From NCBI GenBank assembly GCA_964633015.1, contig CAZWEV010000011.1, positions 6,727-70,726 of the forward strand: a DNA stretch of 64,000 nt, in the 5' to 3' direction. Position numbers and translations under genes: made by a program. The stretch comes from an uncultured Desulfobacteraceae bacterium (GTDB lineage: Bacteria; Desulfobacterota; DSM-4660; Desulfatiglandales; Desulfatiglandaceae). How positions within the stretch are numbered: the stretch's first letter is position 1; every line of letters begins with the position of its first letter. Shown piece by piece: positions 3,297-49,918 of the stretch. Under the pieces are notes generated by a model that was not told the DNA's origin, searched no databases, and saw nothing but the letters and a program-made list of their open reading frames with translations.

Positions 3297-4406
3297 ATGG
3301 CGACAATACCGGATAAAATCCTGACATGGCAAATGGTTCAGCCCACTTTGCGGGACAGGGAAACAGGTGAAGTAACGCCGGGGAAAATTGAGAAAACAGA
3401 CATTCCTGTGCCGGAACTGGGACCAGGAGAGGTCCTGGTGGAAGTGGCGGGGTGCGGGGTCTGTCACACAGACCTCGGGTACTATTATGACGGAGTCCCA
3501 ACTGTTTCCAAGCCCCCTTTGACATTGGGACATGAGATTGCCGGTACCGTTGTGGCCGGGGATGAGGCCTGGATCGGGAAAGAGGTCATAATCCCGGCGG
3601 TAATGCCTTGCCGCCAATGCATTCTCTGCAAGACAGGCCGGGGAAACCGGTGCCTGAACCAGAAAATGCCGGGAAACAGCCTGGGACTGTACGGCGGATT
3701 TTCCAGCCATATTCCCGTCCCCAGCATCGATCTTTGCGAAGTCAAGGACAGGGGAGAATTCCCTCTTTCTCACCTGGCAGTAGTAGCTGACGCCGGCACC
3801 ACTCCTTACCAGGCTGCCAAACGAGCCGACCTGCAGCCCGGTGACAACGTCGTGGTCATTGGAATCACCGGCGGCGTCGGCCAGTATATGGGCCAGATAG
3901 CCAAAGCTCTCGGAGCAAAGACGGTGGTGGGTATTGCTCGTAACAAGGAAAAACTTGACAGGGCCCTGAAATACGGTGCGGATCTTGTAATTAACTCCAC
4001 GGATAAAGACGCGAGGGCCATCTCGAAAGAATTCAGGGGCCTCTGCAAAGAGAACGGCCTCCCCACCTTTGGATGGAAAATCTTTGAGATAACAGGAGTC
4101 AAGGCCGGCCAGGAAATCGGCCTGGCTCTTCTTGGTTTCGTGGGGAAACTGATTGTTGTAGGGTTCGGCTTGGCTAAGACGGAATACGGGATCGGCCGGC
4201 TCATGGCTTTTGACGCCGAAATCATCGGTACCTGGGGATGTCTTCCCGAATATTATCCCATTGTCATGGATATGGTCCTGAACAAGAAGATCGATATCGG
4301 ACCGTTTGTGGAGACAAGACCCATGAGTTCCATTGTAGAAACCTTTGAAGAAGTGCATAAGGCCGGTTCTCCCGCCAAGCGAATCGTCTTGACGCCTGAT
4401 TTCTAA
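3297..4406 (+). CDS. had: 6-hydroxycyclohex-1-ene-1-carbonyl-CoA dehydrogenase (Zn-dependent alcohol dehydrogenase family)
   Basis: 369 aa with Zn-ADH motifs GCGVCHTDL and GHEIAGTV and a GGVG nucleotide fold. GGAGG lies 7 nt upstream of the ATG. It sits immediately upstream of the oah-type hydrolase; its size matches Had/BamQ. Confidence 0.75.
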   Translation: MATIPDKILTWQMVQPTLRDRETGEVTPGKIEKTDIPVPELGPGEVLVEVAGCGVCHTDLGYYYDGVPTVSKPPLTLGHEIAGTVVAGDEAWIGKEVIIPAVMPCRQCILCKTGRGNRCLNQKMPGNSLGLYGGFSSHIPVPSIDLCEVKDRGEFPLSHLAVVADAGTTPYQAAKRADLQPGDNVVVIGITGGVGQYMGQIAKALGAKTVVGIARNKEKLDRALKYGADLVINSTDKDARAISKEFRGLCKENGLPTFGWKIFEITGVKAGQEIGLALLGFVGKLIVVGFGLAKTEYGIGRLMAFDAEIIGTWGCLPEYYPIVMDMVLNKKIDIGPFVETRPMSSIVETFEEVHKAGSPAKRIVLTPDF

Positions 4407-4501
4407 CGGATTGCCTCAGAAATGTACCTGCAGAGGAAAATAAACAGGGAATATTAACCGCCATTGGCGAAATAACACTAAACAAGAAGGAGGAAAAAAT
4501 C

Positions 4502-6834: not shown

Positions 6835-7653
6835 ATGGGTTCACGGGATTATTACGAAATACTCAATGTTCATAAGGAAGCGGTGCAGGACGAAATCCGT
6901 GAAGCCTACCGGAAGCTGGCTTTGCAATATCACCCTGACCGGAATCATGACGATCCTGCCGCCACTTCCCGAATGAAAGAGATAAACGAGGCATATGCCG
7001 TTCTCTCTGATCCTGAAAAGCGGAAACAATACGACGGGCTGTGGAGCACCTACGGTCCTTCGGCCTCTGATCATTTCAGAAACGCCTATTCTGAACAGGA
7101 CATATTCAGAGGTTCCGACATCCAGGAAATTCTGGATCAACTCAGCAGGGCATTCGGTTACCGCGGCTTCGATGACATTTTCCATGAAGCCTACGGTCCC
7201 GGATACCGCTCCTTCGAATTTCGAAGGCCGGGATCTTTCGGGCGGGTATTCGTCTCGTCATCCGAGAACGGTCAGGACCGCCGGAAACAATCCTCCCTGC
7301 AGGGGATGCTTGGCAGGCTCGTCAAATATGGCCTTAAAAAGAAGTGGGGCATAGAAATCCCTGAAAGAGGAAGAGATCTCCACGACATTATCACCATTTC
7401 CCCGGGACTCGTAATCCAGGGCGGGAAAGTCAGGTACGTGAACAGAAGTGAACAAAGAGAGCTGATCGTCACTATTCCGCCCGGAATACGGCCGGGCCAG
7501 CACGTCCGCTTGAAAGGATTGGGGAATGAAGGAAGGGGAGGAGGAGAACCGGGAGACCTTTTCCTGCGCATCCGCGTGAGATCAGCGTTTTTCCAGAAAA
7601 TAAGGGATTTCGTGGATCAACTCCTGGCTTATCTGTCAATCAAGACTCATTAA
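6835..7653 (+). CDS. J-domain protein with a DnaJ C-terminal-like domain
   Basis: DYYEILNV...YRKLALQYHPDRN (HPD motif). The C-terminal GEPGDLFLRIRV is DnaJ_C-like. There is no Zn-finger repeat, so it is not canonical DnaJ. Confidence 0.8.
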   Translation: MGSRDYYEILNVHKEAVQDEIREAYRKLALQYHPDRNHDDPAATSRMKEINEAYAVLSDPEKRKQYDGLWSTYGPSASDHFRNAYSEQDIFRGSDIQEILDQLSRAFGYRGFDDIFHEAYGPGYRSFEFRRPGSFGRVFVSSSENGQDRRKQSSLQGMLGRLVKYGLKKKWGIEIPERGRDLHDIITISPGLVIQGGKVRYVNRSEQRELIVTIPPGIRPGQHVRLKGLGNEGRGGGEPGDLFLRIRVRSAFFQKIRDFVDQLLAYLSIKTH

Positions 7654-7901
7654 CCCTGATCCACCATCAAGGTGTCTGTCGTCTGCTGCGTTGCCTTCGA
7701 TCACTCCTCCTTGCGACGTATTGGTCATACGACTCAGTCGTCGCTCCTCCCGCACACAACACGGGATCTACGATGCGGCGCTCCCGCTCAAAGTCCGGGA
7801 TCTTCGACTTGCATCTGACACCTTGCTGATGATCAGGACTTTTGCCAAATCAACCCATAAGATTACCATTCGGAATTTAGACGGTGGATTTGGGATTGAC
7901 A
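7654..7901 (-). repeat. structured intergenic repeat, copy 1 (reverse orientation relative to copies 2 and 3)
   Basis: 7691-7864 aligns gap-free to the reverse complement of 40761-40934 with 158/174 identities (hand alignment). Closing helix is 7655-7676 with 7817-7837. Confidence 0.75.
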
Positions 7902-9883
7902 GACGGCGGCGGGAAAAAGAGCGAGAATGTCGTGCCCCCGGACCCATGGCAGTCATTCGTGGTGCTGCAAAAGATGCATTTGCTGATCCTGCCGGGACAG
8001 AGGTCTTCTTCCCCGGGGATGAACCGGCACCGGGTAGACTCCATGTGTATGGTGAAATTGAACCGTTCGGAGAAAATCTTCATGCGCAGAAGATCAGCGC
8101 CTTTCCCTCCCGCATTAAAACCAAAGGGCTTCCCCGTCCGGTAGTTCGCTGTTTGCTGGGTCGAAAAAAAGCCTTCGAAGATGCGACGTTGCGCTCCCTC
8201 AACGACACCTACTCCGTAGTCCCGCACAAGAAGGACTGTCCCCTTCCCTTTTTTACGGACAATCAGGTCGATTTTTCCTTCATCCGGGGTATTCTCTATG
8301 GCGTTTTTCAGCAGCCCGTCAACAACTTTTTGTAATATAGCGGAAGGGAGCAACACGGCCGGTGCTGCTTCCAACTGTTCCATCACGTTCACCTCCCGGT
8401 GGGAAAACAGCGGCTTGAGTTCCCCGAGGCGTTTTTTCACAAACTCGTGAAGAAAAATTTCCTCAATCTCTTCCGGCGCTTTCCCAAATACATCATCAAT
8501 CCTTTTTCGTATTCGCTGCACCAGAAGTATATTCCGGGACTCCTCCTCCACCAGAACCGAAAGTTCATCCTTGCACTCTTCCAATAACAGGGTCAGGAGA
8601 TCATATGCCCGGTAATGCCCCTCCCGCATGATGTCACTCACTTGGTACTGTATATCGACGATTCGATCCAGATTTCGCTTTATTCTTTCAATGTTTGGCT
8701 CCCACGATGTATCTGAAAGGGTTGTCAGAGTGCGTTCAAGGATCTTGAGAGAACCGCCGAGAATGGAGACCGGGGTTTTCAATTCATGTGAAAGATGATG
8801 AATCACCTTGTCTTTTGCCCGGTTCAGACTTCTCACCTCTTCATACGCACTCTTGAGTTTCTTGTTCACTCTTGCATTATCCACCGACAGGGCAACGGCA
8901 CCGGCTATGGTATTCAGGAGTTCAATATCGGTGCGGTCAAATGATCCCTTCTTCTTGTTGAGTGCACAGAGGACTCCGGTAATCCGATCGCTGCTCCTGA
9001 GTGGCACAAGGGCTAGATTCCGGGTCTTGTAGCCCAGCTTTTTGTCCCTTTCCCTGTGGAGTTCCGCATCTGTGGAAGTATCAGAGACGATAATCGGCTT
9101 CCCGGTCTTCACGACCTTCCCGGCCACCAGTTCGTCCATCCTGAAGCGGATCTCCTTTACTCTCTTCTGGGTCGCCCGGTCATCGTAGGCTGCGCCGAGT
9201 ACAAAGAGCTCCTGTTTTTCCTCGTCCAGCAAAATAACTACAGACCCCTCGGTATCGAGGTTTCGCTTAACTTCATTATCCACGTAATCCAGGAGTTCTT
9301 CCAGATCAGGATACTCGGGGAGTGCAGTACTGATACGCAGAATGGTCTCATTGATTCTCGCAATTCTTTTCTGCTCGGTAATATCCCTGAAAATCAATAG
9401 CAGGCCGGCCTGCTCATATTCCGATTCATCATAGTAGGCTATCCGCATCACCACATCAAGCATCTCTCCGCCACGAGTAATTCGCCTGGTCTCACGCCGA
9501 AGCTGCCACTTCTCTCTGATAACCTTGGCTATGTCCTTCTGTTCCTCCTGCCGCAATTCCTGCGGGACAAAGGGGATCTTCTTCCCCTCCATTTCCCTGA
9601 ACGTCCAGCCAAAGAGGCGTATGAACCCGGAATTGAGGTAACGGACTTCTTGGTCAAGACTGAAAACGGCCAGCGGATACGGAACAAAATCGAAAACCGT
9701 ATTGAGCCTTCTCCGGGTCCGTAAGAACGCTTCCTCCACCTTCTTCACTTCGGCAAGTCGCTCTTCCAGTTCCTGTACCCGGAGTTCCAGTTCTTTATAG
9801 GTGAGTTTCTTGCCCACGATCAACCTTTCGCCAAAGGATCTCTTTTCAGGGAATTTCTTCCCATTCATCAAGCAAATCCGCAA
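7877..9883 (-). CDS. PAS/GAF sensor histidine kinase
   Basis: 668 aa with an N-terminal coiled coil, PAS and GAF regions, H-box HHLSHELKTPVS and an HATPase region (DYGVGV, GGKGADL). The true start is uncertain: ATG 9883/9868 overlap the upstream gene, and GTG 9817 after GAAAGG is possible. Confidence 0.85.
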   Translation of the reverse strand: MRICLMNGKKFPEKRSFGERLIVGKKLTYKELELRVQELEERLAEVKKVEEAFLRTRRRLNTVFDFVPYPLAVFSLDQEVRYLNSGFIRLFGWTFREMEGKKIPFVPQELRQEEQKDIAKVIREKWQLRRETRRITRGGEMLDVVMRIAYYDESEYEQAGLLLIFRDITEQKRIARINETILRISTALPEYPDLEELLDYVDNEVKRNLDTEGSVVILLDEEKQELFVLGAAYDDRATQKRVKEIRFRMDELVAGKVVKTGKPIIVSDTSTDAELHRERDKKLGYKTRNLALVPLRSSDRITGVLCALNKKKGSFDRTDIELLNTIAGAVALSVDNARVNKKLKSAYEEVRSLNRAKDKVIHHLSHELKTPVSILGGSLKILERTLTTLSDTSWEPNIERIKRNLDRIVDIQYQVSDIMREGHYRAYDLLTLLLEECKDELSVLVEEESRNILLVQRIRKRIDDVFGKAPEEIEEIFLHEFVKKRLGELKPLFSHREVNVMEQLEAAPAVLLPSAILQKVVDGLLKNAIENTPDEGKIDLIVRKKGKGTVLLVRDYGVGVVEGAQRRIFEGFFSTQQTANYRTGKPFGFNAGGKGADLLRMKIFSERFNFTIHMESTRCRFIPGEEDLCPGRISKCIFCSTTNDCHGSGGTTFSLFFPPPSVNPKSTV

Positions 9884-40561: not shown

Positions 40562-40724
40562 CAACAATCCTCCATCCAAAATAAGATCTTTGCTTCATAA
40601 ATGCCCGTTCGAAGGGTTGCCCTGCCACGGCGCACAGGACAGGGTGTCTCTTTTTCGATTACGAGTCTCCCGGGCTGGTTTTTTTATTGATATCGGCAGA
40701 TCCTTTTTTTGTCAATGGACATGA

Positions 40725-40998
40725 CAATCCCCAAAGCCACCGTCTAAACTCCACAATGGCAATCTTGTAAGTTGATTTGGCGAAAGTCCTGATCACCAGC
40801 AAGGTGTCAAATGCAAGTCGAAGATCCCGTCCCCGGGGCGGGGGCGCCGCATCGTAGATCCCGTGTTGTGTGCGGGAGGAGCGACGACTGAGGCGTATGA
40901 CCAATACGTCGCAAGGAGGAGCGACCGAAGGCAACGCAGCTTGAGGTCTGCGAAATCCCGTTTTGGCGGGAAGATGATACCTTGATGGTGGGTCAGGG
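40725..40998 (+). repeat. structured intergenic repeat, copy 2 (longest)
   Basis: See copy 1. Closing helix is 40788-40808 with 40976-40997. Hairpins at 40860-40876 and 40892-40910. GGAGGAG at 40875-40881 and 40915-40921. Confidence 0.75.
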
Positions 40999-41035
40999 AC
41001 AATCGCCGCTACGGGTTCTTCGACCCAGGACTCTA

Positions 41036-48643: not shown

Positions 48644-48821
48644 CTTCGAAGATCACGTCTTCAGAAAATCCGAAATGCTTTGCGTAATCGTCACCCTATA
48701 GAAACAATGTCTAAAATTCAACGGGAAAGAGAGATTTTGCCCTCCATCACCACGCTTCCTCAACACCCGTTTTCATACCCTTCAAAGAACTGTCACGGTG
48801 GACCTGAAGCGATGTTTCTCA

Positions 48822-49631: not shown

Positions 49632-49851
49632 GACAATCCTTCCTCTGAAGTAAACCTTCTCCCGCAGAGGGGCTCAGCGTGCAAGGTTTGTTTTCGAAAT
49701 TTCTGACCGTCAGCAAGGTGTCAAATACAAGTCGAACATCCGGTCCCCGGCGGGGGCCCCAAGGAGCGACGACTGAGGCGTATATTTAATACGCCGCAAG
49801 GACGAGAGATCAAACGCATCGTAACAGATGATGCCTTGCCGGTGGATCAGG
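49632..49851 (+). repeat. structured intergenic repeat, copy 3 (shortened variant)
   Basis: Shares the GACAATCC start, the closing helix (49702-49722 with 49830-49851) and the central hairpin (49777-49795) with copy 2. It lacks the CCCG-N9-CGGG segment. Confidence 0.7.
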
Positions 49852-49918
49852 ATATTGACAATACCCTTTTATTGGGATACGTTCAATATCATTCGACTTG
49901 CCAGGGGTTCACCGGACC

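Follow-up and report, generated by a model that had tools for sequence, protein, structure and literature searches.

Correia and ERIC elements are examples of bacterial MITEs. Insertion sequences of the IS1380 family (e.g. ISEcp1) have termini of the type 5'-CC...GG-3' and are flanked by a direct repeat of 4-5 bp. A different kind of behavior is found in safe-haven elements, with Ty3/Ty1 inserting upstream of Pol III genes, Tf1 at Pol II promoters, Tn7 downstream of glmS and group IIC introns after terminators. The repeat family described here resembles MITEAba12 of Acinetobacter (PMC6382973) and the QMITEs of Coxiella (PMC5896051) in being short, non-coding, multi-copy and mostly intergenic. 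Like bacterial MITEs in general, it shows terminal inverted repeats (TIRs), a short target duplication, presence/absence polymorphism and stem-loops, and it is able to lengthen or truncate adjacent ORFs. It differs from known MITEs in its unrelated sequence (Rfam, 72,556 plasmids), in its four copies of the terminal motif, in a modular conserved multi-hairpin core and in a fixed-distance association with TTGACA/-35 hexamers. We consider the family to be very probably a gene-less, non-autonomous DDE-type MITE that is mobilised in trans by a transposase encoded elsewhere.

The window, a stretch of DNA of 64,000 nucleotides, had been reported in a first-pass annotation to contain three copies of one non-coding sequence. 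All three copies (c1, c2 and c3) are present, together with the remnant of a fourth:

7654..7894, minus strand: c1, full-length element (nhmmer 187.6 bits)
40730..40998, plus strand: c2, full-length element (nhmmer 195.8 bits, HMM positions 1-212)
49644..49852, plus strand, left boundary approximate: c3, with the core at ~49702-49852 intact (nhmmer 163.6 bits)
~48740..48808, minus strand: eroded remnant of an ancient fourth copy, located by three-way alignment with the spacers of relatives (L062/L063, L065)

The nhmmer profile search returned no further intact copy in the window, and the remnant of the fourth copy is located between a TIM-barrel gene and a DHH gene. c2 represents the long form of the element, consisting of a 5' domain and a core with two extra hairpins, and its terminal G at 40998 is ambiguous between element and target duplication. 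In case of c3, both the left TIR and the 5' domain have been lost or replaced, and its left boundary, placed at 49632 in the first-pass annotation, is undefined. The motif initially taken as the start of all copies (GACAATCC/GTCAATCC) falls mostly outside the element, with GACAAT/GTCAAT representing duplicated target; the element begins at CCC, at 40730 in c2 and at 7894 in c1. A repeat search identified c1 and c2 as an inverted pair of 186 nt with 91% complementarity (7685-7870 and 40755-40940), with which the earlier hand alignment (158/174 identical bases) is consistent. In the same search, c3 matched c2 in two separate blocks, one of 77 nt at 78% and one of 60 nt at 82%. In a three-way alignment of c1, c2 and c3, the common core is broken by indels of whole hairpins. 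The genes around the copies are unrelated housekeeping genes whose products include a DnaJ-like protein, a PAS/GAF histidine kinase, an acyl-CoA dehydrogenase, a corrinoid adenosyltransferase and a xylose-isomerase-like TIM-barrel protein. c1 sits between convergent genes and c2 is antisense to both of its neighbours.

Further copies were collected via pattern scans of species-representative genomes and metagenomes, using two conserved core blocks with a variable gap between them. True loci were confirmed by profile search and more copies were added from syntenic contigs of relatives. The genome scan yielded 9 true loci, all in uncultured Desulfobacteraceae MAGs; the gap in its pattern was one base short, which placed long variants (including c1 and c2) outside its reach. 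The pattern was corrected for the metagenome scan, which yielded 28 true loci. After removal of duplicates, ca. 36 distinct insertion sites outside the window were obtained, and all true matches belong to Desulfobacteraceae MAGs or related metagenome contigs. The recurrence of the element at this number of sites is far more than expected by chance. Assemblies with copies include GCA_964581175.1 (CAZONI01), CAZEGG01, CAYUCJ01 and CAYOIU01. Chance pattern matches (L003, L015/L034, L017, L022/L032, L025, L029 and L040) were discarded. The two pattern blocks, AAGTCGAA and GGAGCGACGACTG, are invariant in the copy set by construction and their invariance is thus a search artefact. Pairing of AGTCG with CGACT was given no weight because both blocks are part of the search pattern. 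The insertion contexts are diverse and comprise convergent genes, divergent genes, positions within operons just 5' of a ribosome-binding site and the final codons of genes for histidine kinases.

A scan of viral contigs gave no match to the element, nor did a blastn search against 72,556 plasmids. The first-pass annotation had recognized no named RNA family, and this is in agreement with our Rfam searches: the whole window gave no match in Rfam 15 at the gathering score, c2 gave none at E <= 10, and the other copies gave only sub-threshold matches to hairpin-like miRNAs. Nothing relevant was found in the literature on a Desulfobacter MITE, on TTGACA-targeting MITEs or on the TIR sequences. 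Rfam, plasmid records and the searchable literature thus yielded no description of the family, which represents a well-known kind of element.

Based on the consensus of 24 full copies, a complete element runs 5'-CCCAAATCCACCGTC ... GATGGTGGATCAGGG-3'. The left end CCCAAATCCACCGTC and the reverse complement of the right end, CCCTGATCCACCATC, match at 12 of 15 positions, and the ends therefore constitute imperfect 15-bp TIRs. The terminal-repeat motif recurs twice internally, once inverted at the end of a 5' domain of ~55 nt (GGTTGATTTGGCG) and once in direct orientation at the opening of the core (CCTGATCACCAGCAAGG). In c2, the four sites are arranged as follows:

40730..40744, plus strand: TIR1, the left terminal inverted repeat, CCCAAAGCCACCGTC, which matches the reverse complement of the right end CCCTGACCCACCATC
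40771..40782, plus strand: TIR2, an inverted TIR-like site, GTTGATTTGGCG, which closes the 5' domain of ~53 nt
40788..40809, plus strand: TIR3, an internal TIR-like site forming the 5' strand of the closing helix
40975..40998, plus strand: TIR4, the right end with the right terminal inverted repeat, forming the 3' strand of the closing helix

TIR2 pairs with CCAAAGC at the left end (helix H0). The closing helix of ~21 bp with one bulged G, noticed before, forms between 40788-40809 and 40975-40998 and is a feature of the MFE structure in c2 and c3 and of the centroid structure in c1. Structure prediction returned it for most of 28 copies from other genomes as well. This helix is the right end of the element paired with an internal terminal-repeat-like site. 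Also confirmed were the positions of the internal motifs, namely CCCG-N9-CGGG (40860-40876), GGCGTAT-N5-ATACGTC and two GGAGGAG motifs. Across the family, the core carries as many as four ATCCCG-loop-CGGGA hairpins, a single GGCGTAT-loop-ATACGCC hairpin, inside of which four copies harbor a nested hairpin of 110-130 nt, and two AGGAGCGA motifs. Copies are ca. 180-270 bp long, the measured range being 183-269 bp, and reach ca. 400 bp with the nested hairpin. The left end or 5' domain is absent in c3, L006, L019, L021 and L004b, a solo 5' domain is found at L019:6511-6565, and 3'-truncated or internally deleted forms are represented by L035, the L019 solo 5' domain and L062. No reading frame is conserved, as had been proposed, since the frame of the conserved blocks (0, 1 or 2) changes from one copy to another. 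A coding function was rejected on this ground, although one strand is free of stop codons in many copies.

Short direct repeats, different for each copy, flank the element. When offsets were allowed to vary, paired flanks reached a mean best match of 4.1/5 compared with 2.8 for mismatched flank pairs, and none of 20,000 permutations scored as high (p < 5e-5). Counted from termini CCC...GGG, the duplication register peaks at 5 bp, where flank identity is 66% compared with 26% for the null. This is the best-scoring register in 12 of the 24 copies, and 7 copies show a 5/5 match. The duplication length varies between 4 and 6 bp (c2: 6 bp, ACAATC; L007: 4 bp), and several copies are without a clear duplication. 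An initial estimate of 6-7 bp, together with the ISDol1 group as a lead, was dropped because the register analysis gives 5 bp; the literature on ISDol1 offered nothing useful. The duplications flanking c2 and c1 are:

40724..40729, unstranded: left copy of the c2 target duplication, ACAATC (GACAATC with G 40723), present as a single copy in empty sites
40999..41004, unstranded: right copy of the c2 target duplication, ACAATC, present as a single copy in empty sites
7895..7899, unstranded: left copy of the c1 target duplication, TCAAT on the minus strand, a 4/5 match with TTAAT
7649..7653, unstranded: right copy of the c1 target duplication, TTAAT on the minus strand, which holds the stop codon TAA of the DnaJ-like gene

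Syntenic contigs of the nearest available relatives (81-86% protein identity) were used for an empty-site comparison, and all three window sites were found to be empty in these relatives. At the c2 site, the spacer between the adenosyltransferase and dehydrogenase genes measures 106-198 bp in relatives and is free of the element. When the element and one repeat copy are taken out of the c2 region of the window, the remainder aligns to the spacers of the relatives. At the c1 site, L058/L059 have 18 bp and no element between the stop codons of the DnaJ-like gene and the kinase gene, which are convergent. The divergent spacer at the c3 site is 305 bp long in the window compared with 19-63 bp in element-free relatives (L062/L063/L065).

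The relatives also carry copies of their own. L062/L063 contain a full copy between an isoleucyl-tRNA synthetase gene and a DUF3568 gene, and an internally deleted copy with recognizable ends between the TIM-barrel and DHH genes. L065 shares the latter copy, which has undergone internal deletion in L062/L065 and has almost vanished from the window. The decay of this shared old copy took a different course in each lineage, from which it follows that old copies are not preserved in the manner of genes. Mobility, as evident from empty sites and from the occupation of different sites in related genomes, is thus shown, as are the terminal repeats, the target duplication and the decay of an old copy. 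Insertions also leave traces in adjacent reading frames. The kinase ORF at 7877-9883 ends five codons inside c1 (...SVN followed by PKSTV and stop) and would end in ...SVNES and stop if c1 were absent. The stop codon of the DnaJ-like gene (6835-7653) lies within the right repeat copy of c1. At L009, a kinase ORF likewise extends into the element, and 15 nt separate the element from the start of a response-regulator gene.

Outside the element, a strong target preference was observed. TTGAC starts at positions +13 to +15 in 12 of 56 outward flanks, where ca. 0.4 would be expected from the remaining flank positions (background rate ca. 0.0023 per position, taken from flanks outside positions 10-18). 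Eight of these occurrences lie beyond the right end and 4 beyond the left end, and three more start at +10. Among the 16 hexamers at +10 to +18, 12 are followed at 17-18 nt by a -10-like hexamer starting with TA, 10 of which fit TAnnnT; this spacing indicates that most of the TTGACA hexamers are real promoters directed away from the element. More than half of the copies are without such a hexamer. The element is found in either orientation relative to promoters and neighbouring genes. The bases between the element end and the hexamer show no conservation, and the information content of the end-adjacent bases does not exceed 0.13 bit. A TTGACA hexamer lies near each of c2, c3 and c1:

40687..40715, minus strand: acyl-CoA dehydrogenase promoter TTGACA-N17-TATCAA, conserved in relatives without the element
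49855..49883, plus strand: promoter TTGACA-N17-TACGTT of the downstream 113-aa gene, 3 nt past the right end of c3
7634..7639, minus strand: TTGACA hexamer within the DnaJ-like coding sequence, starting 15 nt past the right end of c1

In the acyl-CoA dehydrogenase promoter, the -35 hexamer (40710-40715) has its start 15 nt outside the left end of c2, and this promoter, CATTGACAAG...GATATCAATAAA, is kept in element-free relatives. The promoter next to c3 reads TTGACA-N17-TACCTT in L062/L063, where c3 is absent, and L065 aligns only TTGATC at this position. As the promoters are present at empty sites, the promoter preceded the insertion for both c2 and the c3 site. The hexamer next to c1 is not part of a promoter and is conserved as coding sequence in L058/L059. 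Its location within the DnaJ-like coding sequence argues for recognition of the sequence and not of an active promoter. Overall, the family strongly prefers sites with TTGACA, usually a pre-existing -35 box pointing away, 13-15 nt beyond either end. No description of a fixed-distance association with TTGACA or a -35 box was found in the literature for any bacterial MITE. The outcome is like that of safe-haven elements, in that insertion occurs a short fixed distance outside a signal and leaves both the signal and the gene intact, whereas Ty3/Ty1, Tf1, Tn7 and group IIC introns differ in element class and host domain.

The family thus combines the features by which MITEs are identified: TIRs, target duplication, small size without coding capacity and dispersed copies with insertion polymorphism. 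The first-pass annotation had offered two readings, one being a family of structured ncRNAs and the other a non-autonomous element that moves as single-stranded nucleic acid. Presence/absence polymorphism, TIRs and target-site duplications uphold the non-autonomous mobile element; neither the single-stranded REP/RAYT or IS200/IS605 mechanism nor an ncRNA family as the primary nature of the repeat found support.

In a MITE of this kind, a DDE-type cut- or copy-and-paste transposase supplied from elsewhere would bind all four occurrences of the terminal motif, two at the ends and two internal, make a staggered cut of 5 bp and join the element. The cut site would be selected 9-10 bp from the TTGACA hexamer, with the transposase or a partner presumably reading TTGACA or a protein bound there. 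The TIR-like sites and the folded core may serve as binding or assembly sites or may be relics of the untranslated ends of a parent insertion sequence. An autonomous parent would be expected to be bounded by CCCAAATCCACC...GGTGGATCAGGG, to generate a 5-bp duplication and to carry a transposase gene. A search by TIR matches across the window and ca. 300 kb of fetched loci uncovered neither an autonomous element nor a transposase bounded by these ends. One candidate, L019:6511-8064, was considered as an IS of 1.55 kb and rejected, being made up of the solo 5' domain, a Ser/Thr protein-kinase gene and a chance match in a coding region. The IS1380 family is a tentative lead for the possible source of the MITE: the termini CC(C)...(G)GG and the mostly 5-bp duplication are alike, whereas the terminal repeats show no likeness beyond CC.

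The target preference allows for a more far-reaching, tentative proposal. The transposase or the element may recognize TTGACA, or sigma-70/RNA polymerase bound to it, and insert upstream with its end 14 nt away in either orientation, with the folded, strand-biased core acting as an RNA or single-strand cofactor. The family could then be regarded as a bacterial 'safe-haven' element. We view this proposal as possible but see the balance of probability against it. With respect to the recognized signal, the TTGACA in a coding region at c1 suggests sequence recognition over an active promoter complex.

Several observations do not fit well with a plain MITE. The interior is more conserved than a passive MITE needs, hairpins are gained and lost in a modular fashion, compensatory changes occur and the fold prefers one strand. 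The conserved interior hints at a role as RNA or single-stranded DNA beyond the plain MITE model. The plus-strand fold has a z-score of about -3. The RNAalifold consensus on a MAFFT alignment was poor, and five helices were therefore defined by hand in an alignment of 28 copies. In these helices, 90.5% of cells are paired and 9 pairs are changed on both sides, with 21 cells carrying both-side changes compared with 6.2 +/- 3.1 in shuffles (0/500). Helix 1 (TIR2/left end) is 80% paired with double changes at 3 pairs, and helix 2, the closing helix, has 21 pairs, is 90.8% paired and shows changes on both sides at 5 pairs. The best covarying pairs are 88/286 (UA 9, UG 9, CG 7) and 177/195 (GC 10, AU 5, GU 4). 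Full double compensatory substitutions, which had not been seen among the three window copies, thus appear once more copies are aligned. As the main helix is made up of two copies of a probable protein-binding repeat, such covariation is possible without any RNA being involved. Whole hairpins are gained or lost at three sites among copies. The strand asymmetry proposed earlier is borne out: the high-frequency non-canonical states of the closing helix are all of the G.U type on the strand first read, but the effect is weak, with G.U and A.C about equally frequent when counted by position. In L031, folding of the nested hairpin is favoured by 19 kcal/mol on the plus strand, and among the 28 copies, 24 reach a lower energy on this strand. 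After composition control this preference is reduced to 18 of 28 (Wilcoxon p = 0.026, copies not independent). Taken together, the signals of covariation and of strand asymmetry range from weak to moderate. The core may have a role as a single strand, but the repeat can be explained without it.

Of the alternatives to a plain MITE, the one that survives best is compatible with it, namely a MITE whose folded core is also a functional RNA, for example a transposase regulator, an RNA stabiliser or processing site, or a guide-like RNA. The structural evidence given above speaks for this reading, as do insertions within operons (L009, L010, L013 and c1) which share the orientation of transcription. 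Then again, both strands fold well, as in any inverted-repeat DNA, old copies are not maintained and c2 is antisense to its flanking genes. We regard an additional RNA function as possible but doubtful.

Considerably less probable is a family of structured ncRNA genes, i.e. sRNA-like paralogues selected for their fold and not for mobility. Such genes would account for the same stable plus-strand fold, paired and covarying helices, hairpin turnover, G.U states and strand preference, including that of the nested hairpin. They would not account for the target duplications and TIRs, for sites being empty in relatives or for the decay by deletion of an orthologous copy. In addition, no convincing promoter-terminator unit was found in the copies, which occur in both orientations relative to neighbouring genes and promoters, overlap the 3' ends of genes and match no Rfam family. 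The strand asymmetry is weak once composition is controlled for, and covariation can arise without RNA in a helix of transposase-binding repeats. We therefore do not consider an ncRNA gene family to be the primary nature of the repeat. Similarly, a riboswitch or 5'-UTR element is not indicated, with neighbours being unrelated, c1 lying between convergent genes, c2 being antisense and both orientations occurring relative to promoters.

A SINE-like element, in which an RNA copy is reverse-transcribed into a nicked target, is very improbable. Target duplications, the plus-strand fold preference and the copies that have lost the 5' part and kept the 3' end (c3, L006, L019, L021 and L004b) would be in line with this mechanism. 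It is contradicted by clear TIRs and two internal repeats of the same motif, by the additional existence of 3'-truncated or internally deleted copies (L035, the L019 solo 5' domain and L062) and by the absence of an internal promoter and a 3' tail from the element. We know of no SINE-like system in bacteria.

Hardly tenable is the derivation from REP/RAYT or from IS200/IS605 as a PATE-like element, moving as single-stranded DNA by a Y1/HUH transposase. REP/BIME-RAYT elements and PATEs are likewise dispersed, intergenic, hairpin-rich and without their own transposase. The many hairpins with the repeated ATCCCG-loop-CGGGA motif, the mild strand-specific pairing and the absence of a transposase adjoining the copies agree with such an origin. 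However, these families are inserted 3' of a fixed tetra- or pentanucleotide and are devoid of TIRs and target duplications, whereas the present element has both TIRs and duplications and its end-adjacent bases are not conserved (<= 0.13 bit). PATEs are characterized by subterminal hairpins, and the RAYT gene by flanking REPs. REP units are palindromes of 20-40 nt, compared with 180-270 bp for the present element, which is thus 5-10 times longer. This reading is already largely refuted by the duplications. Equally far-fetched is a cis-regulatory DNA module of promoters, such as a regulator platform at a fixed distance from the -35 box, to which the constant distance of 14 nt from TTGACA, observed beyond either end in a total of 12 of 56 flanks, would lend itself. 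The same promoters are conserved without the element in relatives, the hexamer at c1 is part of a coding sequence and the insertion is located between convergent genes, over half of the copies are devoid of such a hexamer and duplications flank the element.

In conclusion, the repeat is best treated as a mobile element and should be masked or annotated as such and not as an RNA gene. Insertion of c1 explains odd gene ends in the window, for example that of the histidine-kinase ORF at 7877-9883, and the work contributes a MITE family from uncultured, sulfate-reducer-like bacteria, a lineage that has received little study. The constant distance of 14 nt from -35 hexamers, backed by empty sites, is unusual among bacterial transposons and likely to come as a surprise to specialists. 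If confirmed on whole genomes, this spacing would provide a natural example of promoter-adjacent target selection and a possible tool for placing DNA beside promoters. It would also give rise to variation close to promoters, by which regulation in these bacteria may be rewired.

At window positions 7654-7894 (minus strand), the transposon copy lies between two convergent genes. The stop codon of the DnaJ-like gene (6835-7653) falls within the duplicated target, and the interior of the element supplies the last five codons of the histidine-kinase ORF (7877-9883, minus strand). Without the insertion, this ORF is predicted to end in ...SVNES*, overlapping the 3' end of the DnaJ-like gene. Among the relatives syntenic at this site, L058 and L059 are empty and L057 carries a 164-bp spacer (4320-4483). 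This spacer contains an inverted repeat, GAGTCAGCTTCAAAAT ... ATTTTGAAGCTGACTC, which is unrelated to the element and may represent another small element or a terminator.

A fourth, eroded copy was located in the window:

48740-48808, minus strand, heavily eroded element copy in the spacer separating the TIM-barrel and DHH-family genes

This remnant was identifiable solely through comparison with internally deleted orthologous copies in syntenic relatives (L062/L063 and L065); a -35-like TTGAAT starts 15 nt past its right end. In the L062 copy (1082-1264), the AAGTCGAAGATCCCG...CGGG hairpin block is missing and the GGAGCGACGACTG block bears a substitution. Therefore, neither block is truly invariant among copies found without the search pattern.

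Further variants were found in loci from Desulfobacteraceae MAGs and related metagenome contigs:

L019:6511-6565, solo 5' domain, extending from the left terminal repeat to GATTTG and located upstream of a gene for a Ser/Thr protein kinase
L031:550-830, copy with nested long hairpin
L038:400-725, copy with nested long hairpin
L039:120-455, copy with nested long hairpin
L041:2965-3305, copy with nested long hairpin

The 5' domain has its own flanking pair of terminal motifs, inverted relative to each other, and might exist or move independently of the rest of the element. In all four nested cases, the GGCGTAT...ATACGCC hairpin contains in its loop a G.U-rich hairpin of 110-130 nt, composed of GGGCGCAGGGCTCAGG-like repeats. 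This inner hairpin folds far more stably on the plus strand of the element than on the minus strand, and it may represent a second small element that inserted into the first.

Three intra-operon copies are situated directly upstream of a ribosome-binding site:

L009:3384-3733, duplicated target AAGGA
L010:7632-7983, duplicated target TGGAG
L013:716-1039, duplicated target GAGGT

In each case the duplicated target falls within the Shine-Dalgarno sequence, so that the downstream gene retains its ribosome-binding site.
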